Below are positions 14,663 through 34,361 of a stretch of DNA of 64,000 bases, piece after piece. Both the position numbers and the translations under genes were made by a program. The notes below the pieces were generated by a model that was not told the DNA's origin, made no database searches, and saw only the letters and a list, made by a program, of their open reading frames with translations. The stretch is taken from NCBI GenBank assembly GCA_965223435.1, contig CBDCWQ010000023.1, positions 930,607 to 994,606 of the forward strand, in the 5' to 3' direction. Within the stretch, counting starts at the first letter, position 1, and each line of letters opens with the position of its first letter. The DNA comes from Myxococcota bacterium. Lineage in GTDB: Bacteria > Myxococcota > Kuafuiibacteriia > Kuafuiibacteriales > Kuafuiibacteriaceae.

Positions 14663-14678
14663 TGCAAGTCCTGTTCCA
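14663..14678 (-). promoter_or_regulatory. Sigma-54 promoter candidate, minus strand: TGGAAC-aggac-TTGCA.
   Basis: One core mismatch with exact spacing. ~10-50 nt upstream of the amidoligase start, depending on which start is chosen. Confidence 0.5.
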
Positions 14679-14766
14679 GGATTTGGATGGTGAAAGCCCA
14701 GGTTTTCATGTGGCGCGCATGCCACACTGAGGCAATTTGCCCCGTCCTTGAGGAAGCTTACCGTCG

Positions 14767-15456
14767 CTACTCGCCGCCGACCTTTTCCATAAAGTGATTC
14801 ATGTTGTCGGCCTCGCCGACGAGCATCAGTGTATCGCCCTCGTTGATTCGATACTCAAGGTCAGGGATTCTCAGTCGGGGGCGAACCCCGGAAGCCACTG
14901 GGCTGCTCCCGCTTCGAAAACCGAGGACCATGATCCCGAAGCGTTCGAAAATCTTGGCCTCTTGAAGGGATTTACCCATCAAAGGGCCCGATGCGGCCCA
15001 GGGGATGACGCGGTAGTTTTGGGCAAACTCAATGAGGTCCTCCGAAATGGGTGCGAACAACTCATTGGCTACTCTTCGTCCCATTTCGGCCTCAACCTCT
15101 AGGGTTCGTGTCGCGCCGACTGTCTTGAGGATATCTGCTTGCCTTGGCGTCGCGGCCCGAACAACGATCTGCGAAATACCGAGTTCTTTGAGCGTCGCGA
15201 CGGTAAGGACCGAGGCTTCCAGGCTTTCCCCGTAAGTCACGATGGCAGCATCGATCTTTTCAATACCGAGATTTTCAAGGACTTCCTTTTGTGCACTGTC
15301 GCCCACGAAGGCGGCGCTAGACCGTGACTTTATCTCCTCGATTGTTTTCTCATTGGCATCCAATACCATCACATCGACGCCCGACTCCCAAAGAGCTTCC
15401 GCCAAGGCGCGGCCGAGGCGCCCGAGTCCGACGACCAAGATTTTCTTGTTCTCCAT
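14767..15456 (-). CDS. trkA: TrkA/KtrA potassium-uptake regulatory subunit (RCK N and C domains).
   Basis: 'KILVVGLGRLGRALAEAL' is a Rossmann motif, followed by a TrkA-C domain. Start taken at the internal Met 'MENKK'. Confidence 0.85.
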   Translation of the reverse strand: MENKKILVVGLGRLGRALAEALWESGVDVMVLDANEKTIEEIKSRSSAAFVGDSAQKEVLENLGIEKIDAAIVTYGESLEASVLTVATLKELGISQIVVRAATPRQADILKTVGATRTLEVEAEMGRRVANELFAPISEDLIEFAQNYRVIPWAASGPLMGKSLQEAKIFERFGIMVLGFRSGSSPVASGVRPRLRIPDLEYRINEGDTLMLVGEADNMNHFMEKVGGE

Positions 15457-15464
15457 GGTGTACC

Positions 15465-17276
15465 TTACCCGATTAAGACATCTTCTTTTGGAAACTGGCA
15501 AGGTGAAGGCTCGCGGCTATGCATGAGTGCCAAAGCAAAGGCCAGGGGACCTACCCGGCCGACCAACATGGTCAAGGTCACCAAGAGCTTTCCCGCCACC
15601 GAAAGCTCTTGGGTGAGGCCCGTGGACAGCCCTACAGTGGCGAAGGCACTAAAGGCTTCGAAAGAGATTGCCATGGAAGGTGCATCTTCGGTCACCAGAA
15701 GACAAAACATGACCGCAGAGACGACCAGGACGCTGGTGAAAAATACTCCCAACACACGTTTCACCAGGCGTGTCGACAGTTTTCTACCTAACAGGTGGGG
15801 GTCTTTGCTGTTCGCGGCTTCTGCCCGAAACGTTGCGAATAAGATAGCCAACGACGTGGTTTTGATACCACCACCGGTTGAACCTGGAGATGCTCCCACA
15901 AACATCACCAAACAAATGAACATGAGGGCAGGTGCGCCGACTTGTGAAAAATCAACCGTATTGAATCCAGCAGTGCGCGCCGTGATAGATTGAAAGAGTC
16001 CTCCAAGAATTCTCTCGAAAAACGTGCGTTCTTTGAGCGCGTTGTTCCATTCCAGTGCACCGAAGACTGCTGCGGTGACAAGCGTTAAACAAAGAGAAGT
16101 CCAAAGGACAACACGGGTATTAAGGCTTAGGCGGTCGGGTCTTTGTCCTCGTACTTTTTGCCAGAGTCTCTGGCCCAGTTCATCTAGGACAGGAAACCCC
16201 AGTCCTCCTGCTACGATCAACAGCATCAAAGCGAAGTTGATACCCCAGTGGTTGAAGTAGGGCTCCATCCCGCTTTCGAGAATAGAAAACCCGGCGTTGC
16301 AGAATGCGCTCACGGCATGGAACAACGCTTGCCAGAAGGGCTCCCATACGGCGGCTGCCCCATCAGAATCCATGCGAAAGAAGGCGTACAGAATCGCTGT
16401 GCCGATGCTCTCGAAGAGCAGGGTGTAAGCGATGGCCCCAAGGACGATACGTTTAAGTTGAGCCGCTGAGGACGCATCGACTGCCTGGGCGAGCACGGCT
16501 TGAGACCGAAAGCGCAATCGATTGCCCGCAATGAATACAAGGACGGACGACAAGGTCATGATCCCGAGGCCCCCGACTTGGATCAAGACCAAAATGATCG
16601 TTTGACCAAAAGGCGTATATGTTTCGGCCACGTTGTGAACCACGAGTCCGGTGACACAAACCGCGCTGACCGCCGTGAACAAGCTATCAATAAACGAAGC
16701 GCTGTTCTGTCCCCGGACTGCTTGGGGCAGAGCCAGGAGTAGCGCACCGATAATGCCCAAAAGCCCAAAGGCCATCGTCGCGAGGCGCTGAGGCTTTTCC
16801 GACCAATCGATGAGGACCTCTTTGGCTCCCATCGTTTTCGTAAGCAGACCGATGGCCACGGAGACCAGGAGGGCGGCGGTGTAGATGCGATGGGTGCCGA
16901 CCCACTCTGAAGTGGGTGGATTGGACTGAATGACCACAAGCCACTTTTGAACAAGGCTCAAGAGGAGCACCCCGGCACTTGCGATCCGAACCAACAGTAC
17001 GAACCCGCGGCTCTTCTGAAGCAGCCTAGAACTTGTCTCGGTGCGATCTCGCCTGAATAGGCCGATGATGAATGGAATCGCGAGCGTAGACTCGAGGAGT
17101 GTGAGTCCCAACGAAACGTACGCACGTACCCCGAGCAAGTAGTCCATGGTGAGGATGATGGCGGCCCCCACCATGCTCTGGATCCCTGCTCGGGTTGTTC
17201 CGGATCCGGTGGCGGTTGCCCCATCCTCGACGTTCATGTGCTCAAGTTCTGGGACATATGCGTTTGCCACGACCAC
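15465..17276 (-). CDS. trkH: TrkH/KtrB-family K+ transporter membrane subunit.
   Basis: Multi-pass membrane protein with the repeated M1PM2 architecture and GLG-type selectivity motifs. Adjacent to trkA. Confidence 0.85.
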   Translation of the reverse strand: MVVANAYVPELEHMNVEDGATATGSGTTRAGIQSMVGAAIILTMDYLLGVRAYVSLGLTLLESTLAIPFIIGLFRRDRTETSSRLLQKSRGFVLLVRIASAGVLLLSLVQKWLVVIQSNPPTSEWVGTHRIYTAALLVSVAIGLLTKTMGAKEVLIDWSEKPQRLATMAFGLLGIIGALLLALPQAVRGQNSASFIDSLFTAVSAVCVTGLVVHNVAETYTPFGQTIILVLIQVGGLGIMTLSSVLVFIAGNRLRFRSQAVLAQAVDASSAAQLKRIVLGAIAYTLLFESIGTAILYAFFRMDSDGAAAVWEPFWQALFHAVSAFCNAGFSILESGMEPYFNHWGINFALMLLIVAGGLGFPVLDELGQRLWQKVRGQRPDRLSLNTRVVLWTSLCLTLVTAAVFGALEWNNALKERTFFERILGGLFQSITARTAGFNTVDFSQVGAPALMFICLVMFVGASPGSTGGGIKTTSLAILFATFRAEAANSKDPHLLGRKLSTRLVKRVLGVFFTSVLVVSAVMFCLLVTEDAPSMAISFEAFSAFATVGLSTGLTQELSVAGKLLVTLTMLVGRVGPLAFALALMHSREPSPCQFPKEDVLIG

Positions 17277-17307: not shown

Positions 17308-17601
17308 TCAAGAGTTTTTCAGACGCAGATACCCGCCCTTCAAGTCGGCCGCGATTTTCTTGGCCGTGGACTCTAGAACTTCTGAAGCTTGGGCTGACTT
17401 CTTTCCGAGCTCCTCGAGGGTGGACTCGAGCTTAAGCCATTGCGGCTCCAATTTTTCTAGGGCTTCTTTCTTCCCCAGATGGGCTTGGACCTTCAGTTCG
17501 TCCCGGGTGCGTCGCAGCTCCTCCAGGTCTCTCTTAAACTCCTCTTTCAGGTTTGTCATAAACGAATGCTCCTTTCGCAGGAACATACCAGCAACTTTCA
17601 T
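17308..17601 (-). CDS. Small coiled-coil hypothetical protein.
   Basis: 97 aa, K/E-rich heptads. Lies between nhaA and trkH. Confidence 0.4.
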   Translation of the reverse strand: MKVAGMFLRKEHSFMTNLKEEFKRDLEELRRTRDELKVQAHLGKKEALEKLEPQWLKLESTLEELGKKSAQASEVLESTAKKIAADLKGGYLRLKNS

Positions 17602-18954
17602 GCCAACGATTTCGAAGACGCGGGACCGCAGTATCTCAGCCAGATGAAGCCCAAGGTTCCTGACGCCAGCGACCCTAGAAGAATCCCTAATTTGGCCTGA
17701 TCGAGACGGGCAGCAGTAGGGAAAGCAAGGCCGGCGATAAACAGAGACATTGTAAACCCGATCCCCGCCAGCCAGCTTGTTCCCAGGACGTGGCGGAAGG
17801 AAACCCCATTCGGTAGTTCAGCGACGCCGATTCTGACTGCGAACCATGAACAAAGGGTGATGCCGACCGGTTTTCCGACAAAGAGCCCAAGGGCGATGCC
17901 CAAGCTTTCCGCCGATGTCCACACCGAGGTCAGGTCTTCAGGGAGGGTGACCCCCGCGTTGGCGAGGGCAAACAGGGGAAGCACACAATATGTCGCCACC
18001 GGCGCGAGGCTATGCTCCAGACGCTGTAAGGGCGCGCTGGCGAGCGCGATGGTGTTCGCAATGCTCTCCAACACCTGCTGTTGTTCCTTGGAGTTCAAAG
18101 CGTGATCTTCTGGGAGTCCAGCCGCATGAAGATCGGCCAAGTGTGCTTGCATGTTTTCGTTAAACTCGCTCCCATCGAGACGGGTTCGGGCCGGTATCAC
18201 GAATGACACCAACAGCGCGGCAATCGTGGCGTGCACGCCAGACTGGAGGAAGGCGAGCCACATCAACAGACCGATGATCAAGTAGATGAGGGGCGAGCGA
18301 ACGCGCAGTCGATTCGCGACGACGCACGCACTGAATATGAGGCCTCCCGCGCCAAGGCTCGCGAGGGCGAGATGGTCCGTGTAAAATAGTGCAATGACCA
18401 ACACCGCGCCAATGTCGTCAACGATTGCGAGTGCGCTCAAGAAGACCTTGAGTCCAACGGGGACATGGTGCCTCACAAGCGCGAGTATCCCGAGGGCAAA
18501 AGCGATATCGGTCGCCATCGGAATGCCCCAGCCGACGACGGTGGCTTCCCCACGATTGAGAAGATAGTAGATGGCGGCAGGTACGGCCATCCCGCCCACG
18601 GCGGCGACGGCTGGAAGGGTTGCCTGTCTTAGCGTTGAGAGTTCACCCACCAGCAGCTCACGTTTGATTTCGAGGCCGACTAGAAAGAAGAAGATCCCCA
18701 TGAGACCGTCATTGACCCAGTGAAGAGATGATTTTCCGAGGTGCCATGGCCCAATGGCAATAGAAATTTCGGTGTGAAGAAGCGCGTGGTACCGCGCGTG
18801 CCACGGCGTATTCGCAAACACGAGTGCCAAGAGGGCTGCCCCCAAGAGCAAGAAGGCACCGGCCAGGGGATGTGCCAGGAACGCCTGGACGGGTTGCACA
18901 AGGCGATCAATGGGACGATCCTGGAGGACGGTCGGTGTTTCATCGCCTCGCACC
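17598..18954 (-). CDS. nhaA: NhaA Na+/H+ antiporter. Start chosen at the internal Met; the ORF runs to 19010.
   Basis: 'GLMGIFFFLVGLEIKRELLVGELS' is the NhaA signature region. ~12 TM helices. Confidence 0.85.
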
Positions 18955-19168
18955 ATGAAAACTGGGGGACGATCCGTGGAACTCACTCTTCTTGCTTGCG
19001 TTTTTTTCACCCTCGAAACAAGTCCTAATAGCCCAGCACTTTTCGCTGTGGCGTATTGTCACGATTGGGACGTTCAGCCTCGCACACGCCGTGGCGTTCA
19101 GACGCGGAAGGGGTTCTTTCTACATCGCGCGGGATAAACCGGAAGCGGTCGTGTTGCATGTATCATGG

Positions 19169-19184
19169 TGGCACGAAGGTTGCT
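19169..19184 (+). promoter_or_regulatory. Exact-consensus sigma-54 promoter TGGCAC-gaagg-TTGCT on the plus strand with no plus-strand gene downstream. It would transcribe antisense to the LTXXQ and USP genes.
   Basis: Perfect 10/10 core match. The chance expectation of an exact core match is about 0.1 per 64 kb on both strands. Confidence 0.5.
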
Positions 19185-19369: not shown

Positions 19370-19807
19370 CTAGAACTTGAGGTTCCAGGTCTTCTTGGCT
19401 AGCGCCTCAGCCTCATCGTACAGGTTCTCGAACGACTCGATTTGGTTCTCCAGCTGTTCTCGAGTGTCCACAAATGCTGTTGCGCCAGTCTGCTGGAGCA
19501 GGGCGAGGTTTCGGTTGGCCTTCTTTTTCACCTGGCTGATTCGTCTCTTGACCGTGGTGAAGCAGTTGTCATGACGATGTTCTGTCTGTTTCTTGAGAAG
19601 CGCCCACCTTTCCTCAACCGCCTCCAGCCGCAATCGGAGAATTTCCGCCGCGTTTCGTTGTCTAAGTGTCAGCGGTGCGACCGGTTCGATGCGAGGTTTT
19701 CCGACCGTTGGGGCTTCTGCGACAAAGGCATTTTGGGCGTTTTGACCCGGGCATCCCAAGGTTGTGCCTGCAATGGCGCTCGAAACGACGTAGACATGCA
19801 ATCTCAT
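19370..19807 (-). CDS. Secreted LTXXQ-motif (Spy/CpxP/ZraP-like) periplasmic protein, tentative.
   Basis: Signal peptide 'MRLHVYVVSSAIAGTTLG', an 'LTLRQ' motif, helical. Confidence 0.4.
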   Translation of the reverse strand: MRLHVYVVSSAIAGTTLGCPGQNAQNAFVAEAPTVGKPRIEPVAPLTLRQRNAAEILRLRLEAVEERWALLKKQTEHRHDNCFTTVKRRISQVKKKANRNLALLQQTGATAFVDTREQLENQIESFENLYDEAEALAKKTWNLKF

Positions 19808-19856
19808 CGTCCAGTGAGGGTGCACATTCCATACCACGTCAATTGAAGACAAGGAT

Positions 19857-20324
19857 CTAGATCCGAACACTCAGTACGGGGCATTCGGAACCGCGTATGA
19901 CTTGCCTATCGATGCTGTCATCCTGTTTCCAACGGGGCATTTGATTCCCTCCCATCACAATGAGGTCGTAGTCCTTCGAACGGGCCATGATTAGGGGTGC
20001 AGGTATGCCCGGTTCGAGCAGGAGGCGGATCGGACATAGAGGCCTGGACATCAATTGGCTTACGAACACGGCGGTGGTCCCGCTATTTCCTTTCTCTTCG
20101 CGCTTTTGGTTTGCGCCGGTCGAGGCAAAAACACGTGGTGTCCAGATGTGAAGGATATCGACGCCGGCGTTCAAGAGGTATGCAAGGTGGAGTGCAGTTT
20201 CTATCGCCCCATATCCTTCGTTCAAAAGATCAACTGGGACCAGTATTTTTTGGATGACTCTCAATACTCCGCGTTCCGGTTTGGTACAGCGTTTGTCGCT
20301 ATGTTGTCCACGCACAGCCCCCAC
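19857..20324 (-). CDS. Universal stress protein domain. Probably the C-terminal half of a tandem-USP gene split by a frameshift.
   Basis: 'ILVPVDLL' and 'YDLIVMGGN' are USP motifs. Overlaps the upstream USP ORF by 26 bp in another frame. Confidence 0.7.
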   Translation of the reverse strand: MGAVRGQHSDKRCTKPERGVLRVIQKILVPVDLLNEGYGAIETALHLAYLLNAGVDILHIWTPRVFASTGANQKREEKGNSGTTAVFVSQLMSRPLCPIRLLLEPGIPAPLIMARSKDYDLIVMGGNQMPRWKQDDSIDRQVIRGSECPVLSVRI

Positions 20325-20796
20325 TCAATGGGAAAAATGGGGGTGAATAACTCGCCTCTTTTGATCTGTTCTCGGATGTGGGAGCAAGCTCTTCGGGTAC
20401 AACAAAGATGGGACAGTGCGCTTCGTCTAACAGCGAGTCGACGGTACTCTTCTTGAAAATCTTGGACCACGCCCCGCGACTGTGGAGGCCGACAAAAATC
20501 ATATCGTAGACGCGGGAATGATGGACGAGAACCTGAGTGGGATCCCCAGATGTAGCTTCTGCCGCGATGCGGAGTCCTTCCGGAACCTGGCATTCTTTGA
20601 TCATCCGCTCGATCAGCAGACGATCTTGGGCGATAGGGCCGTGATCGTTTGGTGGTCGATGGCCCTCGTCATCTCTGTGCGGTCGAATATGGAGGACGCG
20701 AAGGTCCGCGTCGGTCTTGGTGGCGAAGTGAATGGCGTACTCTAGGGCCGCAGATGAAGCGGGTGTAAAGTCCACTGCGGCCAATAGTTTGGTCAT
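20299..20796 (-). CDS. Universal stress protein domain, N-terminal half of a possible tandem-USP gene. Start at the internal 'MTKLLAAVDF'.
   Basis: 'LLAAVDFTPASSAAL' and 'CPIFVVP'. Confidence 0.75.
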   Translation of the reverse strand: MTKLLAAVDFTPASSAALEYAIHFATKTDADLRVLHIRPHRDDEGHRPPNDHGPIAQDRLLIERMIKECQVPEGLRIAAEATSGDPTQVLVHHSRVYDMIFVGLHSRGAWSKIFKKSTVDSLLDEAHCPIFVVPEELAPTSENRSKEASYSPPFFPLSGGCAWTT

Positions 20797-20837
20797 ACGT
20801 TTTGAACGTTTCTTCAGCACCTAGTATCCCAAGCAGA

Positions 20838-20852
20838 GCAAGTCTTGTGCCA
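20838..20852 (-). promoter_or_regulatory. Exact-consensus sigma-54 promoter, minus strand: TGGCAC-aagac-TTGC. Immediately upstream of the USP gene.
   Basis: Perfect core match. ~30 nt upstream of the MTKLL start. Confidence 0.6.
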
Positions 20853-21012
20853 TGATGTTCGACGCATATGCGAGCAAGACAGGTGACGTTCTGGCTGCTC
20901 GGACCTGTTGGTATTCGCCACAGTCGTGACAATGTGCCCCATCCGGTTCGACGATCGGGTGGTCGGCTTTGTGCCGCTAGAATGGTATAGATTGTGCTGT
21001 CCGAATGGCGTG

Positions 21013-21510
21013 ATGCCATCCAAGATAGAGACGTTCGACAATCTGGTCAGGAAATTCGAAACCGCCATGTTGGTCACGATTGCGGCGCAGGATCTTCCTC
21101 GAGCCCGTCCGATGAACATTGTGAGGTATGAAGAAGGCGGTGTGTTCTATTTTCTTTCGGCGGACCGAGCTCCGAAGATGTCGGAGCTCAAAAGAGATGC
21201 ACGGTCTGCTCTGGTGCTTCAGAGCGCGACCCGGTTCATCTCGGTATCCGGGTATTCTCGGGAGCTTGAAGGAAAAGACATGGATGCGCTGGCGAGAGAG
21301 TTTGAGAATGAGGGTATTTCCTGTGATGCGATCACAGACGTTGCAAGTAAAAGGGTTTCTCTGGTCCGCTTTGATGCGGAGCAGGCTGAATACTGGGATC
21401 TATCTATCAAGGAGGGGCTCAAGCACGGGTGGGATCGGATCGCAGCGGTGATCAAGGTGGAGCCCCTCCCAAAAGTGCGTCCCTCAGCCCAAGCAAAGGT
21501 TGAGCTCTAG
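21013..21510 (+). CDS. Pyridoxamine-5'-phosphate-oxidase-like FMN-binding protein (general stress protein 26 type).
   Basis: 'AMLVTIAAQDLPRARPMNIV...GVFYFLS' is a split-barrel pattern. Start at the internal Met. Confidence 0.7.
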   Translation: MPSKIETFDNLVRKFETAMLVTIAAQDLPRARPMNIVRYEEGGVFYFLSADRAPKMSELKRDARSALVLQSATRFISVSGYSRELEGKDMDALAREFENEGISCDAITDVASKRVSLVRFDAEQAEYWDLSIKEGLKHGWDRIAAVIKVEPLPKVRPSAQAKVEL

Positions 21511-21551
21511 CCTCGCGAAAATCCAATTTCGGAAAGTAAGGTTCATGAGCC

Positions 21552-22664
21552 GTGACCCATGGCCTCCCTATGTGCCATGACACTGCCATGCCAGAGGCGG
21601 CCGAACTCAGTGGGACTCTGCTTCGAGCGATCTGCGAGGGGGCCCGAGGCATGGGCATCGATGTGGATGGGATGCTCGCGAGGGTAGGGCTTTACGAGGC
21701 GGAGCTGGATGACCCCGATCTTGTGGTTCCAGTGGCCGTGGAATCTCGGCTTTGGCAGGCGTTTCTCGCGGGCGCTGGACACGTGGTGGGTCTTGGGGTT
21801 CGGGCTGCCGAAGCCTTAGACCGAGGTGCCTTTCGAGAGCTCGAGTATGTGGTGCGAACCAGTGAAAATCTCGGGTCGGGCTTATCGAAGCTGGTGGCCT
21901 TCGATCGTCTGCTCCATGGTGTGGATACCTTCTGTTTCGAGGTGGACAGTGAAACCGCTCAGGTTGAGTATCTCCATCCGCACGGTGATGACACTCATGA
22001 GGCCTATGCGGCAAGCGAATTTGCATTGGCCGTTCTGGTTGCGCTGGGGCGTGACGCAACCGGTGTCGATTGGAAACCCGAAAGGGTATGGTTTAGGGGG
22101 CCTGCGCCTCTGGCCGAAAAAACGGAGCCGCTCGATAAATTCTTTCGGGTCCCGGTTTCGTTCGGAAAATCTACGACGGCGCTTTTCCTCGACCGCTCGC
22201 TCCTCGGGACTCCAATGGCGGACGCCGATCCCGAGTTGACGCAGGTTCTAGAGCATTGCCTTCAGAAAAGGATATCAGAACATAGCCCAACACGGCCGCT
22301 CAGTGAGGCCGTTGAGTCGGCCATCGTACAGCTGTTGCCATACGACACTTTGAGCATCGACACTGTTGCCCGTCGATTCGATCTCAAGGCCCGGACACTC
22401 CAAGAACGACTCAAAAAGGATGGGACCTCTTACCAAGAGATCCTGGATCGGACCCGAGAAACGCTCGCGAAGTCATACCTCGAGAACGGTCGAAGTGTTG
22501 CCGCTATTGCCTTTTTGTTGAGCTACGCTGACGTACGGGCCTTTCGCCGAGCGTTTAGGCGTTGGGCCAATTGTTCTCCGCAGGAGTACAAGAAGCGCCT
22601 CAAGGAAGAAAAGGGGACATCTGGCTCAGGGTGCAGCGCAAATAACCCTCTTCCCCGACGCTGA
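21552..22664 (+). CDS. AraC-family transcriptional regulator.
   Basis: C-terminal HTH 'LLSYADVRAFRRAFRRWANCSPQEYKK'. Confidence 0.8.
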   Translation: MTHGLPMCHDTAMPEAAELSGTLLRAICEGARGMGIDVDGMLARVGLYEAELDDPDLVVPVAVESRLWQAFLAGAGHVVGLGVRAAEALDRGAFRELEYVVRTSENLGSGLSKLVAFDRLLHGVDTFCFEVDSETAQVEYLHPHGDDTHEAYAASEFALAVLVALGRDATGVDWKPERVWFRGPAPLAEKTEPLDKFFRVPVSFGKSTTALFLDRSLLGTPMADADPELTQVLEHCLQKRISEHSPTRPLSEAVESAIVQLLPYDTLSIDTVARRFDLKARTLQERLKKDGTSYQEILDRTRETLAKSYLENGRSVAAIAFLLSYADVRAFRRAFRRWANCSPQEYKKRLKEEKGTSGSGCSANNPLPRR

Positions 22665-22688
22665 TCCGTATGCTCACCATCGGTTGCG

Positions 22689-26735: not shown

Positions 26736-26920
26736 TGTTTGTCTCCTTCTGTTCGCGATAAGAGAAACGCCGAACCCGATCGAAACCTGCATGATTCATA
26801 CCGACTCAGCCCTCGGTCGGATCCGTATTGCCGTGAGGAAGAATGACACGGCCGTGACATTTAGCCTCCTCATTGAGTTGAGGCCTCCGAAGAATCTTCC
26901 TCTAAGGTCCAAACGGTTAT

Positions 26921-26936
26921 TGGCGCGGTGTTTGCA
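26921..26936 (+). promoter_or_regulatory. Sigma-54 promoter candidate TGGCGC-ggtgt-TTGCA.
   Basis: One mismatch. ~48 nt upstream of the YflT-like ATG, which has an AAGGAG Shine-Dalgarno. Confidence 0.55.
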
Positions 26937-26983: not shown

Positions 26984-27505
26984 ATGACAAAACAAACTAT
27001 CGTTTTCGGAGCCTTTAAAACGCCAGAGGGTGCACATCGAGCCTCGGATCGGCTGGTTAGCAGTGGTTTCAATTTCAACACAATCAGCATATTACTGTCA
27101 GATCGGGCGAAAGAAAATTTCGCAGCGATGCAGGACAATACCAAAGGGCCTGAGGGGGCGGCCGTGGGGGGGGCGACGGGAGCAACCATCGGCGCCCTTG
27201 TGTCCGGACTTAGCGCGGTCGCTGCAGTGACGATACCCGGCGTTGGTTTACTTGCGGCAGGTCCTCTCGTGGCAGCATTGGCCGGAGGCGGTGCGGGTGC
27301 GGCTACCGGGGGTCTTGTTGGAGGATTGATTGGTCTAGGCATATCCGAGCATGAAGCCAAACTCGCCCAAGATGTGCTCGACAAAGATGGGATTGTCATG
27401 GCGGTTCAAACCAACAAAGAAAAGGCGGATCAGGCGAGAAAAGTATTACGAGAGGCCGGATCGATCGAAGTCGAGTCAGTAGCTGGCCATGCTGCGCGAG
27501 TGTAG
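26984..27505 (+). CDS. General-stress-protein-17M/YflT-like protein with a glycine-zipper segment.
   Basis: N-terminal 'IVFGAFKTPEGAHRASDRL'. Central 'GAAVGGATGATIGALVSG' glycine zipper. Confidence 0.6.
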   Translation: MTKQTIVFGAFKTPEGAHRASDRLVSSGFNFNTISILLSDRAKENFAAMQDNTKGPEGAAVGGATGATIGALVSGLSAVAAVTIPGVGLLAAGPLVAALAGGGAGAATGGLVGGLIGLGISEHEAKLAQDVLDKDGIVMAVQTNKEKADQARKVLREAGSIEVESVAGHAARV

Positions 27506-27635: not shown

Positions 27636-28805
27636 CTATGCGTGCGCCCGTAAACCCCTGCCCACAAATTCCATGATGCGGCGCCCTGTGGAGCGTCGGT
27701 GCCAAGACTGCCGGGTGATAAGCTCGCTTTTCGCAATGTCCTTCTCAAAATGGTGGCGAAGCTGGTTGAGGATCTTATGGTCGACGACCGCCAAGCTGAT
27801 CTCATCGTCCTGTCGCATTGAGCGCTGATTAAAGTTTGCCGATCCAATGATCGCCATGACGTTATCTATAGTGATCACTTTGGCATGCATCATTGTAGGA
27901 CCGTAGCGCCAAAGCTTGACACCAGCCGAAAGAAGGGGGGCTATGGTGCTGTCTCCGATTGCTTTGGCCACTCGCGAATCTGCGCACTGCGCGGAAGGCG
28001 TAAGGATTTGAACATCAACACCGCGTGCAGCAGTATCACGGAGTAGCGTTACCATCGTCTCATCTGGAACGAAGTATGCTGTCGTGATCCGCAGGGTCTT
28101 TTGGGCCATCAACACAGCGGCTCTTTGCAGTGAGGCGATATCCGTATACCCGTAAGAGGAAGTGGTTCGAACTACCTGTATCCAGCTCTTACCGGAACAT
28201 CTCAAGGGCATTGATTCGTTGCTGGCGTCCCACAGGCGCCCTCCCTCGATCCAGTTACCAACAAACGCTGCCCGAAGACCATCCACAGCCGGTCCTTCAA
28301 TGCGAAAGTGGGTATCTCGCCACTCAGATTGATTTCGGGCATCACCCTCCCATTCCTTTGCGATACCAACCCCACCGGTAAATCCTACTCTGTTGTCACA
28401 CACCAGAACTTTGCGATGGGTTCGACGCATATTTTTCCACCAGCGCCACGTGAGCGGTCGGAACCAGCTAACTTCAACCCCGGCTGCCGTCATGGATTCA
28501 ACCAGGCGAGAATCCATACTTCGTGCCCCATAGGCGTCAAGAAGAACTTTCACCCGGATGCCCGCTTTGGCTTTCATCTGAAGGGTGGAAGCAAAACAAT
28601 CGGCGATCGCTCCTCGCCAATAAACAAATGTCAAAAACTCGATCGAAGATTCTGCCTCGTTGATGGCCTGCAACATGGCCGGAAAGATCTCTACCCCATT
28701 TTTAAGAACGGAAATGTGGTTTCCTCCGGTAAATGGAACCCCGAGTAGGTTCTCGAGGTTCTGGATCAGAGTCGGATTGGGTCTACAGATGAGTTCCGGC
28801 TTCAT
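27636..28805 (-). CDS. Phospholipase D-family cardiolipin synthase (two HKD motifs, ClsB-like, no TM segment).
   Basis: 'HAKVITIDNVMAIIGSANFNQRS' HKD motif plus an upstream second HKD. Confidence 0.8.
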   Translation of the reverse strand: MKPELICRPNPTLIQNLENLLGVPFTGGNHISVLKNGVEIFPAMLQAINEAESSIEFLTFVYWRGAIADCFASTLQMKAKAGIRVKVLLDAYGARSMDSRLVESMTAAGVEVSWFRPLTWRWWKNMRRTHRKVLVCDNRVGFTGGVGIAKEWEGDARNQSEWRDTHFRIEGPAVDGLRAAFVGNWIEGGRLWDASNESMPLRCSGKSWIQVVRTTSSYGYTDIASLQRAAVLMAQKTLRITTAYFVPDETMVTLLRDTAARGVDVQILTPSAQCADSRVAKAIGDSTIAPLLSAGVKLWRYGPTMMHAKVITIDNVMAIIGSANFNQRSMRQDDEISLAVVDHKILNQLRHHFEKDIAKSELITRQSWHRRSTGRRIMEFVGRGLRAHA

Positions 28806-29679
28806 TCTTTGAAATGACGATTTCTACGCGGCGATTATTGGCCCGACCCTCTGGCGTGTCGTTTGAGGCGATTGGGTTGCTCTCACCTTTTCCTTCAAAG
28901 CGGAGCCGATTCGCATCCAGGCCCTGCCGGATAAGAAAATCGTAGACGGATTCCGCTCTTTCCCTGGAGAGTTTTTCATTCAAACTTGAAGAACCTCTTG
29001 AGTCTGTGTAGCCCTCGACAACAAAATGAGCGTTGTTGGCTTGGTCCTTTAGAGCGCGGGCAACCTGGGTCAACCTATTCTCAGCGATGGGAAGCAAGTC
29101 ACTTTTTCCCGTCCTAAAGAATACTCCGCCCGTCAACGAAATGACCGTTCGTTGGGTTTCCATTTTCACTTTTGCGACCTCCTTAAGACTTTTCAGGGCA
29201 TCTTGAGCTCGGAGCTCGGCATCGACTTGAGCTGATCGGGCCTCTTGAAGCTGTTCTTTTGTGTTCTGATGCGCAGCCTTGACTTGGCTGAGTTTTTCTT
29301 CGAGGTGCCTTTGGGTCTGAGCCTGTTCCTTGATGAATTGGCTTTCCAGCTTTTCCGTTTCGCGATCCAGTCCAATTTGAAAGGCCTCCGCTTGGGCCAG
29401 TTCAAATCTACGCTGCGCCATATACGCGAAATGCTTTTCATCTCGAGATTGGGGGGCTTCCGCATGGGCAGACTCGGCCTTCGACAGCGAACGCTGCGCT
29501 TCCAACACCTTGTCCGGTGCCAGTTCCTGCGCTCGACTTTGGTTGATGACTCGGTCACGAATCTGACGTGCTTCGGTCAGCTCCGACGAAGGGGGTGTCG
29601 TCGCGCACCCTAAGCCTAGATTCACCATGGTCATCGACAGTATCGATGGTAAGGTGAGATGCTTCAATCGGATATTCAT
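28783..29679 (-). CDS. OmpA-family lipoprotein with a coiled-coil linker.
   Basis: C-terminal 'FVVEGYTDSRGSSSLNEKLSRERAESV...NRRVEI'. Lipobox 'LGLGCAT'. Start at the internal Met. Confidence 0.8.
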   Translation of the reverse strand: MNIRLKHLTLPSILSMTMVNLGLGCATTPPSSELTEARQIRDRVINQSRAQELAPDKVLEAQRSLSKAESAHAEAPQSRDEKHFAYMAQRRFELAQAEAFQIGLDRETEKLESQFIKEQAQTQRHLEEKLSQVKAAHQNTKEQLQEARSAQVDAELRAQDALKSLKEVAKVKMETQRTVISLTGGVFFRTGKSDLLPIAENRLTQVARALKDQANNAHFVVEGYTDSRGSSSLNEKLSRERAESVYDFLIRQGLDANRLRFEGKGESNPIASNDTPEGRANNRRVEIVISKNEAGTHL

Positions 29680-29728
29680 GTGCATAGTTGACTCTCCTAA
29701 TATCTGCCGATCCGAAGGGGTCAGCAAT

Positions 29729-30088
29729 CTAGTTTGCGTTTTTTTCTATTCGGTCAAATCGCTCTTTCATGCGATCAGACGCCTCCTTGGATTTTTGGGT
29801 TCTGACGATCTGGAGCGCTAACTCTGCGTCCATTCGCGCCCGTTCCATGGCTTGAGAGGCTTCCTTGGTCTTCGCCGAATCCATTAAGGCCTGGGCATGA
29901 TCGAGCTGATCCCGGGCCAGTTTGACATGGAGCTTGGCATTGGGATACGCGTCCAGATCCGCCTGCTCTGCTGCTTGGATACTTGACTTGACTTCTACAA
30001 GTTCATCGGGGGCAATCGCCCTGGTTGAGGCGCAAGCTGTAAAGCCCGTTACACCCAAAATAACGAACATCGATTGTATTTTCACCAC
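29729..30088 (-). CDS. Small helical lipoprotein (DUF4398-like) preceding the OmpA gene.
   Basis: Lipobox 'FTACAS'. A 1-bp gap separates it from the ompA-like start. Confidence 0.5.
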   Translation of the reverse strand: MVKIQSMFVILGVTGFTACASTRAIAPDELVEVKSSIQAAEQADLDAYPNAKLHVKLARDQLDHAQALMDSAKTKEASQAMERARMDAELALQIVRTQKSKEASDRMKERFDRIEKNAN

Positions 30089-30139: not shown

Positions 30140-30155
30140 CTGCACGCATCGTGCC
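30140..30155 (-). promoter_or_regulatory. Sigma-54 promoter candidate, minus strand: TGGCAC-gatgc-GTGCA. Drives the lipoprotein, OmpA and cardiolipin-synthase operon.
   Basis: One mismatch. ~40 nt upstream of the 30088 start. Confidence 0.5.
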
Positions 30156-30519
30156 AAGTCGTTGTGTTATGAGAAGAGTGGTCCCGTGGCCTTGGGTGAT
30201 ACCAATATCTTGTTGTACTGGGGCAATTGAGAATCGAGTGAGGCAATTTGTCCCGTTCTAAAACAAAAGTATGATGGAGAGGAAATAGACTGCAGACGCG
30301 CTTTTTGGGCCGACCTATTCGGTTTCGTACCGATTGGGTTTTGAGGCGCCGCGCGTCATCAGGAAGTTTGAATGGCTCCAAGTGCTTGTGATGGGGCAAA
30401 TTGCCTCGGAGACCGTTTTATCGCTCGGTATGTCCCAAAAAATGACTTGAACCACATCGTGGTTACCGCATATTGGCGGGCTTGCGGGTGCGTTGCTCAC
30501 CCAAGGAGTAGATTCCGAC

Positions 30520-31419
30520 ATGGAGATCAAAGCGATGCTCGACAAACTGACCGACAAGCTCACCTCGTGGGCCGAAACAGTGATGGTGATGCTGCCGAAC
30601 CTTGCGATCGCTATCTTGATCGTTGTTGTCTTCTGGCTGCTTTCCAAGCTTGCGCACAAGCTTACTCTAAAAGCCCTCACTCGATTGCACACCAATCGAG
30701 CGGCACGTGGACTGCTAGCCACATTTGTCAGGCTACTCATCCTGGCGGCCGGTCTTGTGATCGCGCTCGGAGTCATGAATCTGGACAAGGCTCTTGCCTC
30801 TATCTTGGCGGGTGCCGGCATCGTGGGTTTAGCACTTGGTTTTGCGTTTCAAGATATGGCAGCAAACCTCATCTCTGGCGTTGGCTTGGCCGTCAACCGG
30901 GAGTGGCCATTCAAGATTGGTGATGTGGTGGAAACCAACGGAGTCTTCGGCACCGTCAAGAATATTCAACTGCGGACGTCCGTCATTGAAACGCCGGGGG
31001 GGAAGACGGTTATCCTCCCCAACCGTCAGATCTACCAAGAGAAGGTCGTGAACTATTCGATGGGGAGAAAACACCGCGTGGAGGTTGAATGTGGCGTGTC
31101 CTATGGCGATGATCTCGAAAAAGTACGTAAGGTGGTTACCGACACTCTGTCCAAGATAACGGAGAGAGACTCTACCCGGGACATCGAGGTTTTCTTTAAG
31201 GCTTTCGGAGACAGCTCCATCAACTTTGTAGCGAGGTTCTGGATCGAGTTTTCAAGACCCGTCGACGAATTGGCTGCGATGAACCAAGCCATTTTGGGGA
31301 TCAAGAAGGCCTTCGATGAGGCTGACATCATGATTCCCTTCCCTATCCGTACGGTCGATTTTGGCATTCGGGGTGGCGAGAAACTTGAAGATGTTCTGAG
31401 AAAAACGAGCGGTGCGTAG
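30520..31419 (+). CDS. MscS-family mechanosensitive channel.
   Basis: 'GDVVETNGVFGTVKNIQLRTSVIETPGGKTVILPN'. AAGGAG Shine-Dalgarno 13 nt upstream of the ATG at 30520. Confidence 0.8.
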   Translation: MEIKAMLDKLTDKLTSWAETVMVMLPNLAIAILIVVVFWLLSKLAHKLTLKALTRLHTNRAARGLLATFVRLLILAAGLVIALGVMNLDKALASILAGAGIVGLALGFAFQDMAANLISGVGLAVNREWPFKIGDVVETNGVFGTVKNIQLRTSVIETPGGKTVILPNRQIYQEKVVNYSMGRKHRVEVECGVSYGDDLEKVRKVVTDTLSKITERDSTRDIEVFFKAFGDSSINFVARFWIEFSRPVDELAAMNQAILGIKKAFDEADIMIPFPIRTVDFGIRGGEKLEDVLRKTSGA

Positions 31420-31543: not shown

Positions 31544-32905
31544 ATGGACAGGCCGAAGGGAAAGGTTCTTGTCATCGACGATGACATCGATCTCGCGGAC
31601 ACGCTAAAAATGGGCCTCAAGGGTCGAGGCTATCAAGTTCATACGTTGAACTCCGGCAATGAAGTGGTCACCAAACTTGAATCCGACGATTTTGATGTGG
31701 TCCTCACCGACCTCCAGATGGAAGGTCTCGATGGACTGGGTGTGGCCCGCTATGTGGTGGAGAACCGGGATATCCCGGTGATGATCATGACCGGCCAAGG
31801 AGACATGGACAAGGCCATCGAAGCGATCCGAGCCGGGGTTTACGACTTTCTCCCCAAGCCCGTTGCCCTCGATGTTGTAACCATCGCGCTCGATCGAGCG
31901 ATTCAGCACAAGCGGCTCGGAACTGAGCTTCGACGTTTGAGTGAACAACTCTCGAGTACCCAGACGGCGCTCGACATGATCGGTGAGAGTGGTCCCATCG
32001 AGCAGCTTCGAGATTTGGTGAAGAGAGTTGCTGGTGCTGAGGTTTCCGTGCTGGTGACGGGGGAGAGCGGAACGGGTAAGGAATTGGTCGCACGGGCCCT
32101 CCACAAGGAATCAGGAAAAAAAGGACGCTTCGTCGCTGTGAATTGTGCGGCGCTTCCCGAGACACTTCTAGAAAGTGAACTCTTTGGACACAAGAAGGGG
32201 GCCTTCACGGATGCCCGTACCGAGAAGAAGGGGCTTTTTCTTGAAGCCAATGACGGGACCCTGTTCTTGGATGAGATCGGCGACATGCCCATCGGCATGC
32301 AGGTCAAGCTGCTCCGAGCCCTTCAAGAATCCAAGATACGTCCGGTGGGAGGCACCGAGGAAGTCCACTTCTCGAGCCAGGTCATAGCGGCCACGCATCG
32401 TGATCTAGAGGAAGCGATCGAGGTCGGGGATTTTCGCGAGGACCTCTACTACAGGATCAATGTGGTTCGAATCCCCGTGCCTCCTCTTCGAACGAGGGGC
32501 AACGATATACTCATTTTAGCTCAGCATTTTATCGAAAGAGCCAGGGAAAAGTCCAATCGCCTCGTCAAGGAAATCTCAGAGCCAGCGGCCCACCGGCTTC
32601 TCGCATACGATTGGCCCGGTAATGTGCGCGAGCTGGAAAACTGTATGGAGCGTGCGGTGGCGTTGGCTCGCTTTGACAGGATCACAGCGGAAGATCTTCC
32701 TGAAAAGATCCAGAACTATGATGTGAGTCGGGCGCCGAATGCGATTCTCGCGCCAGAGCTCCTCTCTATGGAGGCACTCGAACGGCGCCACATCCAGAGC
32801 GTTCTCAAAGCTACAGATGGAAACAAGACCCGGGCCGCAGAAATACTGGGCTTCGACCGACGGACCCTCTACCGAAAGATGGAGCGCTTTGGCATGGAGC
32901 TCTAA
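31544..32905 (+). CDS. Sigma-54-dependent response regulator (NtrC family): REC, AAA+ sigma-54 activator and Fis-type HTH domains.
   Basis: 'GESGTGKE' Walker A. The GAFTGA-region motif. C-terminal 'RTLYRKMERFG'. Confidence 0.9.
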   Translation: MDRPKGKVLVIDDDIDLADTLKMGLKGRGYQVHTLNSGNEVVTKLESDDFDVVLTDLQMEGLDGLGVARYVVENRDIPVMIMTGQGDMDKAIEAIRAGVYDFLPKPVALDVVTIALDRAIQHKRLGTELRRLSEQLSSTQTALDMIGESGPIEQLRDLVKRVAGAEVSVLVTGESGTGKELVARALHKESGKKGRFVAVNCAALPETLLESELFGHKKGAFTDARTEKKGLFLEANDGTLFLDEIGDMPIGMQVKLLRALQESKIRPVGGTEEVHFSSQVIAATHRDLEEAIEVGDFREDLYYRINVVRIPVPPLRTRGNDILILAQHFIERAREKSNRLVKEISEPAAHRLLAYDWPGNVRELENCMERAVALARFDRITAEDLPEKIQNYDVSRAPNAILAPELLSMEALERRHIQSVLKATDGNKTRAAEILGFDRRTLYRKMERFGMEL

Positions 32906-33019
32906 ATTGCTTCATCCAGCCTGCCGTACCCATGTCGGTGGCCTTTGGCCGCCATGAGAAGTTGGCGTTTGTGTTTCTCAACCCACAAGACCTGTTCTAG
33001 TATTTCTTAATCCGTGTCA

Positions 33020-34222
33020 TCAGTTCGTCCTGGAGTTCGTAGATTGAGCGGCCGACTGAGGCAAGCGCACGGTGAATGTTGAACCCTTTCCAACCTCGCT
33101 CTTGACGCTTAGGGCGCCGCCCATTCGTGCCACGAGCTCTCGAGAAATTGAAAGTCCCAGGCCAGCGCCCCGCTTGGTACGTCGGGGTTCCCGAAAGTAG
33201 GCGTCAAAAATATGCGTGAGATTTTCTTTGGAAATACCCGGTCCATTGTCCGCCACCGAGATATGAACCCACTTTCCCTCCTCATCGGTCGCACAGATTG
33301 TGACTGTCCCTGAGGCGGGTGTGTATTTCGCGGCGTTTCCGACGAGATTGACCAAAACTTGCCTCATGCGCGCCGCGTCTGCGAACACCTCCAACGAATC
33401 CGGGATTTCAGCGAGAATGGTGTGGCCTTTGGCCATGACTTCTCCCTTCACCAAAGTGAGCGAATCGTCGACCAATTTTCCGACTGATATGACTTGCAGG
33501 GACAGCTGCGTCCGGCCCGATGAAAGCGCTGCCATATCAAGGACATTGTTCATAAGCGTGCCGAGATGACGGGCGCTCAGTCTAATTTTTCTAAGCGCTG
33601 AACGCTGTCCTTCGGATAGAGAGCCAAACTCGCCGCCCTCGAGCATATCAAGGCACCACTGAATGGTTTGAAGTGGGGTCCTTGCGTCGTGCGAAACCGT
33701 GGCAAGCGCCTTCTCTTTGCGCTTGGCGAGCAAGTCCTTCGTCTCGGCCAGTTCTTCGGCTTCCTCCCACGCTTCTTCAAGCTGGACGCTGTCCAAAGCG
33801 AGCGCCACTTGATCTGAGAGCGCCGATAGCAGCCACTCCTCAGCCGAGGTGATATCTTCCTTCAGCTCGACCAGCAAAAGGATCCCGAGCTCCTCCCCTC
33901 GCGCGACGAGCGGGACTGCAAAACGATCTTGCCCCTTGTTGACCTGCACCAAGAGATCGGTGGTTGTCGCGCAGGAGTGTCTTTCGGCTTCTTTGAGAAA
34001 CCTGTCTGCATTGCCTGAGTGATCCGCTAGACCGAGCTCGCCTTCTTCACTGACGAGAACGACGGCCACGTCCACGCCGGGAAAAATCCCACGGGCGGCC
34101 TGGATGGCGACACGAAAAACGTCCGATCGTTTTGTTGCGTAGCTCAACGCCCGACCGGCTTCGGTCATGGCTCGAAGCACGCCCGGACGCAGCTCAATCT
34201 TCGGGCGGCTGCGATCATTCAT
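33020..34222 (-). CDS. Cytoplasmic GAF-domain sensor histidine kinase. Convergent partner of the NtrC-family regulator.
   Basis: GAF region, then H-box 'VSHDARTPL', then HATPase_c 'GAGLGLSISREL'. Confidence 0.85.
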   Translation of the reverse strand: MNDRSRPKIELRPGVLRAMTEAGRALSYATKRSDVFRVAIQAARGIFPGVDVAVVLVSEEGELGLADHSGNADRFLKEAERHSCATTTDLLVQVNKGQDRFAVPLVARGEELGILLLVELKEDITSAEEWLLSALSDQVALALDSVQLEEAWEEAEELAETKDLLAKRKEKALATVSHDARTPLQTIQWCLDMLEGGEFGSLSEGQRSALRKIRLSARHLGTLMNNVLDMAALSSGRTQLSLQVISVGKLVDDSLTLVKGEVMAKGHTILAEIPDSLEVFADAARMRQVLVNLVGNAAKYTPASGTVTICATDEEGKWVHISVADNGPGISKENLTHIFDAYFREPRRTKRGAGLGLSISRELVARMGGALSVKSEVGKGSTFTVRLPQSAAQSTNSRTN

Positions 34223-34345
34223 CTGGGGCCCCCGTCGAGGCGATGTGCCCCAGTACGCAAGATGGCCCCAGGGTTAACACGTATTTGTTTGTACCTGGTC
34301 GAGCCCATCTCCGTTCCTGGCCTTGATTCATCGAGCGAAGCTCCT

Positions 34346-34361
34346 TGGCACGGTTGCTGCA
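34346..34361 (+). promoter_or_regulatory. Sigma-54 promoter candidate TGGCAC-ggttg-CTGCA.
   Basis: One mismatch. The predicted TSS (~34372) coincides with the ATG at 34374 of the first gene of the downstream operon. Confidence 0.55.

Follow-up and report, generated by a model that had tools for sequence, protein, structure and literature searches.

Within a 64,000-nucleotide stretch of a Myxococcota bacterium contig (CBDCWQ010000023.1, positions 930,607 to 994,606 of the forward strand, assembly GCA_965223435.1; referred to here as the window and numbered from its first letter), a cluster of stress-related genes is located at about 14.6-37 kb around the gene for an NtrC-family bacterial enhancer-binding protein (bEBP). 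The sequence favours, with a probability of roughly 0.7, reading this region as a dense, single sigma-54 regulon for osmotic or general stress that would be controlled by one two-component bEBP. Thirteen to fourteen predicted -24/-12 promoters would drive about a dozen short transcription units, and an enhancer-like dyad of 17 bp recurs at 9-11 of the promoter regions. A sigma-54/bEBP stress regulon around the NtrC-family activator had been proposed in a first-pass annotation of the same DNA, and the proposal was supported by the shared dyad, by six further promoters and by orthologous loci in other genomes. This suggests that the bacterium may run a general or osmotic stress programme through sigma-54 and not through a dedicated stress sigma factor. 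The motifs with their positions, orientation and enrichment, the domain architectures and the recurrence in homologous loci are read directly from the sequence, whereas we infer the binding of this bEBP to the dyad, the actual sigma-54 dependence, the kinase partner and the inducing signal.

Predicted promoters and enhancer-like dyads of the cluster

The exact core TGGCAC-N5-TTGC was present twice in the window against 0.19 expected, a count reached in none of 100 shuffles and in line with the initial estimate that two exact matches exceed chance. Sixteen matches with at most one mismatch were located against 4.5 expected, again reached in none of 100 shuffles, and twelve of these fell in the 14.6-34.4 kb region. 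These pattern searches were independent of a position weight matrix (PWM) of 16 positions, an approximate one based on the published consensus, which identified 17 sites of at least 13 bits against 2.1 expected (maximum of six among 100 shuffles), including fourteen within 14-35 kb, and ten sites of at least 15 bits against 0.54 expected. Thirteen of the 17 strong PWM sites were located in the noncoding 13.8% of the window as defined by the revised gene model (binomial p = 9e-9, a value that includes some gene starts revised with knowledge of the sites), and a fourteenth overlapped only the last codons of nhaA. The noncoding strong sites all pointed to a start codon 12-52 nt away, one orphan excepted. 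GG-N10-GC and then TGC[A/T] were present in all 15 aligned sites, two of which were exact to the 10-base core. The island showed no enrichment of sigma-70-type promoter matches (6 found, 8.7 expected), and no sigma-factor gene was found among the island genes by Pfam and NCBIfam annotation.

The eight promoters named in the first-pass annotation were all present on the correct strand and within 1-2 nt of the positions given there. Six others were identified, those of trkH/trkA, a lipoprotein gene, a PNPOx-AraC-kinase operon, a basic small protein, a lipoprotein-Pmp3 pair and, weakly, a DUF1328 gene. The accompanying statement that all one-mismatch matches were gene-proximal and correctly oriented did not hold, as those at 3283 (+), 10026 (+), 16318 (+), 23357 (+) and 59954 (-) were intragenic or antisense, which is about the number predicted by chance, and the exact match at 19169-19184 (+) precedes no gene. 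The strong intragenic or antisense PWM sites were 3283 (+), 16318 (+) and 28065 (+), also close to the chance expectation of about two.

Alignment of the 260 nt upstream of each promoter revealed a recurring palindrome of 17 bp, TGrGGCAA-N-TTGCCyCA. Measured from the 5' end of the -24 element, the dyad centres were 41-114 nt upstream, or about -65 to -140 relative to the expected transcription start, with one distal second site at 244 nt. Five dyads with at most two mismatches were present in the window against 0.07 expected, and seven with at most three mismatches against 1.0 expected, all seven upstream of sigma-54 sites, a statistic that is partly circular as the consensus was derived from the sites that it scores. 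The recovery of untrained sites and the cross-genome dyad result given below are not circular. A matrix from the seven dyads recovered an untrained eighth site at 20925, between the divergent universal stress protein (Usp) and PNPOx promoters, while a second matrix, to which sites of related loci had been added, picked up a strong site at 19047, also untrained, and weaker ones at 25787 and 26853. A single central dyad was common to each of three divergent promoter pairs. The layout is the classic bEBP enhancer arrangement as described for NmpR (PMC11841059), in which the promoters of a regulon share dyad-symmetric sites some 80-150 bp before the start, and the dyad would be bound by the local bEBP.

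At the left end of the cluster, the promoter TGGAACAGGACTTGCA (14663-14678, minus strand, PWM 15.6) is located 14 nt before the ATG of an Amidoligase_2 gene identified by Pfam (13644-14648, -), and the dyad TGAGGCAATTTGCCCCG (14728-14744) is centred 58 nt upstream of its -24 element. A Na+/H+ exchanger of the CPA1, NhaP type with a TrkA_N domain (11836 to ~13650, -) lies 3' of the amidoligase in the same operon. The promoter TGGCATGAAAGTTGCT (17590-17605, -, PWM 17.5) overlaps the NhaA stop codon and is followed by an AAAGGAG Shine-Dalgarno sequence and the ATG at 17559 of an 83-aa coiled-coil open reading frame (ORF; 17308-17559, -), which is located ahead of trkH (15465-17276, -) and trkA (14767-15501, -), together encoding a K+ uptake system. 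The gene for the NhaA Na+/H+ antiporter (17598-19010, -) had no sigma-54 site in front.

The orphan promoter TGGCACGAAGGTTGCT (19169-19184, +) is an exact consensus match with no ORF downstream, and the dyad TGTGGCGTATTGTCACG (19047-19063, score 17.9) is centred 114 nt upstream of it. A weaker promoter, TGGTATGGAATGTGCA (19821-19836, -, PWM 13.1), is located 13 nt before the ATG of a 145-aa predicted lipoprotein with a coiled coil (19370-19807, -), which has weak similarity to a sigma-54-driven ORF in the related locus L081. The other exact consensus match, TGGCACAAGACTTGCT (20837-20852, -, PWM 18.3), precedes two tandem Usp genes (19857-20796, -). Divergent from it is TGGTATAGATTGTGCT (20983-20998, +, PWM 12.3), 14 nt before the ATG of the first of three genes (21013-23486, +) that probably form one operon and encode a PNPOx-like general-stress-type protein, an AraC-family regulator (Arabinose_bd and HTH_18) and a sensor-less histidine kinase (22689-23486, +). 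The dyad between them, CGTGACAATGTGCCCCA (20925-20941, score 13.6), is 81 nt from the Usp and 50 nt from the PNPOx -24 element.

The top PWM score of the window (19.0) belonged to TGGCATGAAATTTGCT (23782-23797, -), located 16 nt before the ATG of a 99-aa basic, Ala/Lys-rich protein (23466-23765, -) that longest-ORF calling had overlooked and that, on reading downstream of the promoter motif, supplants a spurious plus-strand ORF. The dyad GGAGGCAAGATGCCTCA (23865-23881) lies between this promoter and the divergent TGGCTCACTTCTTGCT (23963-23978, +, PWM 14.2), which is followed by an AAGGAG Shine-Dalgarno sequence, the ATG at 24005 and the genes of a 129-aa coiled-coil lipoprotein and then a Pmp3/YqaE stress proteolipid (24005-24598, +; proteolipid at 24404-24598, E = 1.5e-21). 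The PRC-barrel domain protein (24855-25586, +) follows TGGAACAGACATTGCA (24803-24818, +, PWM 15.4) with an AAGGAG Shine-Dalgarno sequence before its ATG at 24855, and the dyad TGGGGCATTTTCCCCCT (24754-24770) is centred 41 nt upstream of this promoter. The promoter TGGCATTGCTTGTGCA (25875-25890, +, PWM 13.5) is located 14 nt before the ATG of a ferritin-like, Dps-like protein (25905-26456, +), and its region includes the dyad TGGGGCGAATTGCCTCA (25818-25834) and a weaker second dyad at 25787-25803.

A weak sigma-54-like site, CGGTATGAATCATGCA (26788-26803, -), precedes the gene of a 55-aa DUF1328/YtjA-type membrane protein (26568-26735, -), and TGGCGCGGTGTTTGCA (26921-26936, +, PWM 15.4), with an AAGGAG Shine-Dalgarno sequence and the ATG at 26984, precedes a YflT/DUF1269-like glycine-zipper protein whose Pfam matches were under threshold (26984-27505, +). 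The weak dyad CGTGACATTTAGCCTCC (26853-26869, score 10.2) is located midway between these two. The operon of a DUF4398 lipoprotein, a DUF4398-OmpA protein and a PLD-type cardiolipin synthase (27636-30088, -) follows TGGCACGATGCGTGCA (30141-30156, -, PWM 16.0), with the dyad TGAGGCAATTTGTCCCG (30239-30255) centred 91 nt upstream of the -24 element. A further dyad, TGGGGCAAATTGCCTCG (30392-30408), is either the distal second site of this operon or associated with the MscS-bEBP genes. No convincing sigma-54 site was located in front of the MscS mechanosensitive channel gene (30520-31419, +).

The last promoter of the cluster, TGGCACGGTTGCTGCA (34346-34361, +, PWM 15.6), is located 12 nt before the ATG of an ORF of unknown type (110 aa, 34374-34706), followed by the genes of a BON-domain protein and a baeRF-family protein (34374-36961, +). 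Its dyad CGAGGCGATGTGCCCCA (34236-34252) is centred 102 nt upstream of the -24 element and lies 14 nt upstream of the start codon of a histidine kinase gene. The promoter of this BON/baeRF operon stood as first annotated. The BON ORF as called did not, as its N-terminal third is probably noncoding and the arginine-rich "N-terminus" is replaced by the 110-aa ORF; the BON gene would start at about 34703 with an ATGA overlap, and baeRF is located at 35837-36961. The outlying, weaker site TGGAATAATATTTGCG (8948-8963, -, PWM 13.6) precedes a Big_7 Ig-domain protein gene (ATG 8922), and its membership in the regulon is uncertain because no dyad was found.

At six of the window promoters only 12-16 nt separate the 16-nt motif from an ATG, which places the ATG where transcription is expected to start (start codons 14648, 19807, 21013, 23765, 25905 and 34374 of the amidoligase, 19370 lipoprotein, PNPOx, basic protein, ferritin and 34374 ORFs, respectively). 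This leaderless-looking spacing leaves no room for a Shine-Dalgarno sequence and was also present in L001, L002, L004, L006, L081 and L082. When the window and 87 related loci were pooled, the ATGs that open an ORF behind a strong sigma-54 site spiked at offset 12 (8 against about one per other offset), with 18 cases at offsets 12-16. This suggests that leaderless sigma-54 transcripts may be made in these organisms; a literature search found no paper on such transcripts. The orphan promoter reads into 175 nt without genes, beyond which it meets the lipoprotein/Usp operon at its 3' end and in antisense. The 180 nt downstream of it had no Rfam match, and their fold was not more stable than that of shuffles (z = +1.0), which lends no support to a small RNA. 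This promoter is a candidate for the expression of a sigma-54-dependent small RNA or antisense RNA.

The activator, the histidine kinases and related loci

The bEBP (31544-32905, +) has 453 aa and consists of a receiver, a sigma-54 AAA+ domain and an HTH_8 domain, with Pfam E-values of 1.4e-23 for Response_reg, 1.1e-67 for Sigma54_activat, 7.8e-26 for AAA_lid_14 and 7.7e-15 for HTH_8. The Walker A motif GESGTGK is located at residue 173 and the sigma-54-contact loop at residue 219, where the sequence is GAFTDA and not GAFTGA. The GAFTDA loop was present in 119 of the 120 top matches, the query's own database entry among them, and marks a coherent, mostly Myxococcota, orthologue group. This variant has been listed among the tolerated, activity-compatible forms of the loop (PMC4641369). 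The closest solved structure was the Aquifex NtrC-family protein 4l4u (full-length alignment, E = 1.5e-94), and similarity was also detected to ZraR (E = 1e-81, AAA+ and C-terminal DNA-binding region) and to PspF (E = 5e-52, AAA+). Several NCBIfam identities were considered and rejected, including NtrC (score 410, cut-off 558.6), AtoC (409, cut-off 714), the PEP-CTERM response regulator PEP_resp_reg (408, cut-off 502.6), ZraR (385, cut-off 760), GlrR (380, cut-off 763), and LuxO and NtrX, each under the curated cut-off. Because all scores were under the cut-offs, the protein is an NtrC-family member outside the named equivalogs.

A soluble histidine kinase with a GAF-like N-terminus, HisKA and HATPase domains (33020-34222, -) is encoded convergently with the bEBP, 115 bp apart. 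Its earlier description as a GAF kinase agreed with full-length alignment to GAF-domain kinases, while the in-protein Pfam GAF score was under threshold. The putative pairing of this kinase with the bEBP was made by adjacency only, and the bEBP orthologues adjoin differing kinases. The kinase homologues P0128/P0132 (L087, two JGI contigs) are located in operons of a response regulator, a KaiC-like double-ATPase and a kinase, with a SusD gene nearby on one contig.

No syntenic close relative was found, as the scanned contigs gave bEBP homologues that were at most 54% identical and without synteny, and no other bEBP relative more than 60% identical was present in the protein database. The loci around bEBPs of 50-60% identity carry sigma-54 promoters before stress genes. 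L081 includes a kinase, two Asp23 genes, PspC, a bEBP and a ferritin with four sigma-54 promoters before them, including promoters of the ferritin and Asp23 genes, and the sigma-54-driven ORF beside its bEBP orthologue is 53% identical to the basic small protein of the window. The L082 locus combines two bEBPs and a short kinase with baeRF and with a PNPOx gene that has a sigma-54 promoter in front. L083 features a DUF4398-OmpA protein (40% identical), DUF4398, DUF1328, a bEBP and an AraC orthologue (41% over 347 aa), with no strong sigma-54 site before its DUF4398-OmpA, DUF1328 and AraC genes. A DUF1328 gene with a sigma-54 promoter adjoins the bEBP in L007 and L010, while L006 has a cardiolipin-synthase homologue and hemerythrin-like and BON-lipoprotein genes behind sigma-54 promoters, and L085 (Pendulispora brunnea) has KGG, DUF2383 and YtxH genes with a sigma-54 promoter before DUF2383; Chondromyces crocatus (L084) is another cultivated Polyangia member with a bEBP orthologue. 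Orthology between the window and these loci included the AraC, OmpA, PNPOx, basic-protein and DUF1328 genes.

Related dyads of the form yGTGGCA-N3-TGCCrCr were located beside the bEBP orthologues (for example CGTGGCAAATTGCCACG, CGTGGCATTTTGCCTCG and TGTGGCGAAATGCGTCA), and several were 50-75 nt upstream of a sigma-54 site. The relaxed, GC-rich pattern was not enriched overall in these high-GC loci (117 matches against 150 expected), and only its position near the bEBP was, with 16 of the 117 within 300 nt of bEBP gene ends against 4.0 expected (p = 3e-6). The strict dyad of the window had no match in L081-L083. Sigma-54 promoters were also located before the genes of many bEBP orthologues themselves (L001 9911, L006 9910, L082 9933 and about 95 nt upstream in L002-L005), with a dyad also before the bEBP gene in L002-L005 and L082, which implies that those orthologues may be positively autoregulated.

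A stress signal would activate the soluble GAF-type kinase, possibly joined by the sensor-less kinase of the PNPOx operon, and the kinase would phosphorylate the bEBP receiver domain. The bEBP would then oligomerise on the dyads, and its AAA+ domain with the GAFTDA loop would remodel closed E-sigma54 complexes so that the whole set is switched on jointly. The AraC-type regulator and the kinase within a target operon could form a second regulatory tier for extension or feedback of the response.

Gene content and genomic setting

The earlier gene annotations of the cluster were borne out by Pfam and NCBIfam, with corrections from reading behind the promoter motifs that brought in the Pmp3/YqaE proteolipid, the DUF1328/YtjA protein, the basic small protein and the 83-aa and 110-aa ORFs. 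Genes related to ion homeostasis were TrkAH and the NhaP-type exchanger, while those related to the envelope were DUF4398/OmpA, cardiolipin synthase, BON, Pmp3, DUF1328 and the lipoproteins. Protective functions included the two Usp, the ferritin/Dps-like, PNPOx-like, PRC-barrel, YflT-like and basic small proteins and baeRF. The gene content appears to lean to osmotic, ionic and envelope stress as much as to general stress.

The GC content of the window was 55.8% and flat at 52-60% along its length in a composition-based island test, and Rfam and tRNA scans of the window gave no match. The closest homologues of the activator, the kinase and DegQ, excluding their own entries, were at most 60% identical and mostly named as Myxococcota or "Deltaproteobacteria". 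The source is probably an uncultured, deeply branching, Myxococcota-like bacterium without a close relative in collections. A Planctomycetota origin was considered in view of the Usp and MscS enrichment in sigma-54 regulons of Planctomycetia, but the names of the bEBP and DegQ homologues make it less likely.

The stress cluster is located in a region rich in mobile elements and lacks a compositional signature. A full IS66 transposase gene is present at 54120-55685, and a 300-nt IS66 fragment at 11075-11374 is 99% identical to 55429-55728 in direct orientation, 44 kb apart, the pair flanking both the stress cluster and a set of unknown ORFs. A serine recombinase gene (9242-10583, -) is broken into two ORFs, one for a resolvase N-terminal domain and one for a remnant, and is probably a pseudogene. 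A sigma-54-like site (10634-10649, -, 15.3 bits) with a GGGGGAG Shine-Dalgarno sequence is located 50 nt before the recombinase ATG without a dyad, and may be a chance match. Mobility genes form a dense patch at 49.7-63.2 kb. Integrases of the rve type are encoded there at 51677-52345 and at 61033-62367, the second with an AAA_22 ATPase gene behind it, along with a Y2 transposase of the IS91 type (55865-57103), a tyrosine integrase (57119-58042) and a nuclease of the YhcG/DUF1016 type (58563-59840).

Other flanking genes included two DegP/DegQ-type proteases within 5 kb (41472-42965 and 44879-46090, -), neither of them with a sigma-54 site in front; elsewhere on the contig there is a third paralogue with 79% identity to the first. 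At the left edge of the window, a metal-efflux operon (25-5567, +) encodes a CusB-like membrane-fusion protein with a heavy-metal-binding domain and then a 1249-aa RND pump, and contains the strong intragenic sigma-54-like match at 3283. To the right of baeRF, the ORFs of the 36967-40900 region (36967-37374, 37411-37953, 37920-38630, 39083-39523 and 39897-40430) had no Pfam match, and a weak dyad-like match was located at 37099-37115.

Alternative readings and comparison with known systems

Several points weigh against a single regulon controlled by the local bEBP. The sigma-54 PWM was approximate, the dyad counts were partly circular, and several gene starts were re-assigned using promoter positions. 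No dyad was found at four promoter-like sites (TrkH 17590, lipoprotein 19821, Ig 8948 and recombinase 10634). The bEBP gene had no sigma-54 promoter or adjacent dyad of its own, unlike many of its orthologues, and no rpoN gene was located within the 64-kb window. The closest full-length homologues of the soluble kinase are in response regulator-KaiC-kinase operons of other phyla and not beside bEBPs. No relative was closer than about 60% identity, a distance too great for fine-scale phylogenetic footprinting.

It is quite possible, if short of probable, that the regulon is mixed, with real sigma-54 promoters served by at least two bEBPs. The local bEBP would then control only the dyad-bearing subset, while TrkAH, the 19370 lipoprotein and the Ig protein would answer to activators encoded elsewhere on the contig. 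The four sites without a dyad fit this explanation, as no alternative motif shared by them was found, and so do the dozens of bEBPs encoded per Myxococcota genome (PMC12316311) and the bEBP dedicated to K+ uptake in D. vulgaris (PMC4641369). However, the bEBP gene is the only one in the 64-kb window, the promoters without a dyad alternate with dyad-bearing ones and lie among functionally related genes, and bEBPs can act from distant sites.

A dormancy or developmental programme, such as cyst, spore or stationary-phase formation triggered by starvation or development as for Myxococcus Nla-type bEBPs, is a rather unlikely basis for the cluster. Usp, Dps/ferritin-like, PNPOx-like and baeRF proteins, as well as basic ones of a DNA/RNA-binding-like kind, are typical of dormancy, starvation-induced development of M. 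xanthus is driven by sigma-54 bEBPs (PMC9765219), and USP has been tied to low oxygen by NmpR (PMC11841059). Osmotic or ionic stress is favoured instead by TrkAH, the two nearby Na+/H+ antiporters, MscS, cardiolipin synthase, the OsmY-like BON protein and Pmp3, and the dyad is unlike the Nla28, NmpR and PexR sites.

It is improbable that the dyad is the operator of another regulator, either the AraC-family protein or an unlinked repressor, with the bEBP using unrecognised sites. In favour of this reading, L083 has an AraC orthologue together with its bEBP, and one dyad is 14 nt away from the start of the kinase gene, where operators typically lie. The binding sites of AraC-family proteins, however, usually take the form of direct repeats, and the related dyads track bEBP orthologue genes in loci without an AraC gene. 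The symmetry, the 17-bp length, the 41-114 nt distance and the sharing by divergent sigma-54 promoters also fit bEBP enhancers such as those of NmpR (PMC11841059). Alone among the rivals, a chance or compositional artefact in which the matches are not functional promoters is essentially excluded, for although three strong matches were clearly intragenic or antisense, no shuffle reached the observed counts, the noncoding and orientation bias was strong, and the sites co-occur with the independent dyad and recur in other genomes.

Psp, Zra, Nor and Rtc are familiar examples of stress responses that depend on sigma-54 and have activators of their own. PspF/psp and ZraSR in Enterobacteria resemble the regulon read here in their dedicated AAA+ activators, but each controls one or two operons. 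DVU3305 of Desulfovibrio vulgaris is likewise a response-regulator bEBP of the two-component kind and carries the annotation "general stress response, transmembrane transport" in a survey of sigma-54 regulomes, whereas only two adjacent operons are its predicted targets (PMC4641369).

The NmpRSTU system of M. xanthus (PMC11841059) is similar in that the NtrC-like response-regulator bEBP NmpR is fed by histidine kinases and acts in a Myxococcota host from dyad enhancers at most about 100 bp away from sigma-54 promoters on several operons including a universal stress protein gene. Its site is GCGCA-N5-TGCGC, whereas that of the window is TGrGGCAA-N-TTGCCyCA with a GCA-N3-TGC core, and its regulon concerns oxygen use (cbb3 oxidase, CBS proteins) and not ion, envelope and protective proteins. 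The promoters here number about twice those of the NmpR regulon and are packed into one 20-kb cluster. PexR directs a sigma-54/bEBP peroxide-stress response conserved across Myxococcota, also with interrupted palindromic enhancers, but is a one-component GAF-AAA+-HTH sensor of H2O2 with two or three targets (ahpC, katB) and the site CACCG-N6-CGGTG (PMC12754779), in contrast to the receiver-domain bEBP and broad target set proposed here. As sigma-54/bEBP stress regulons are thus already documented in Myxococcota, the initial view that such control would be unusual has been tempered. Nla28 of M. xanthus also governs a large regulon, in which tens of sigma-54 promoters are tied to stress and starvation and regulatory genes are among the targets, but it recognises the tandem half-site CT[C/G]CG[C/G]AG and its targets are scattered and developmental (PMC9765219). 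The best homologues of the window bEBP were from Polyangia-type genomes, not Myxococcus.

The regulons of sigma-B in Bacillus and RpoS in Gammaproteobacteria are parallel in gene content. General-stress hallmark genes in the window were Dps/ferritin, Usp, BON/OsmY, PRC-barrel, MscS, YflT, DUF1328, Pmp3 and the PNPOx-like gene, whose product corresponds to the "general stress protein 26" type. Ferritin-like, MscS and PRC-barrel genes are also shared with the EcfG regulon of Alphaproteobacteria (PMC6599016). Those three systems use a sigma-70-family alternative sigma factor and partner switching or proteolysis, whereas here an ATP-dependent bEBP would act on the sigma-54 holoenzyme. Usp and MscS were enriched among predicted sigma-54 targets of Planctomycetia in a 2025 survey (PMC12316311), and targeted literature searches found no description of a sigma-54 regulon with this composition. 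The window would therefore represent a familiar mechanism, the NtrC-type bEBP with sigma-54, running a general-stress-like gene set that is elsewhere under RpoS, SigB or EcfG.

A more speculative and somewhat doubtful proposal is that a clade of Myxococcota with the GAFTDA loop runs general or osmotic stress through sigma-54 and a two-component bEBP as a fourth architecture beside RpoS, SigB and EcfG, with many promoters giving leaderless mRNAs and one exact promoter making a noncoding or antisense RNA opposed to the Usp operon. The general stress response outside the Proteobacteria and Firmicutes models is largely uncharted, and Myxococcota have unusually many sigma-54 activators, with mostly unassigned targets. 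The locus provides a compact case with one activator, one predicted 17-bp enhancer and about a dozen promoters. If the regulon is real, it would represent the convergent assembly of a protective gene set under a mechanistically different switch, the ATP-driven sigma-54 activator. It would also assign a function to a widespread bEBP orthologue group, and its sigma-54 promoters, several of which seem to yield leaderless mRNAs, would be a natural resource for work on leaderless translation and on the precision of start sites.

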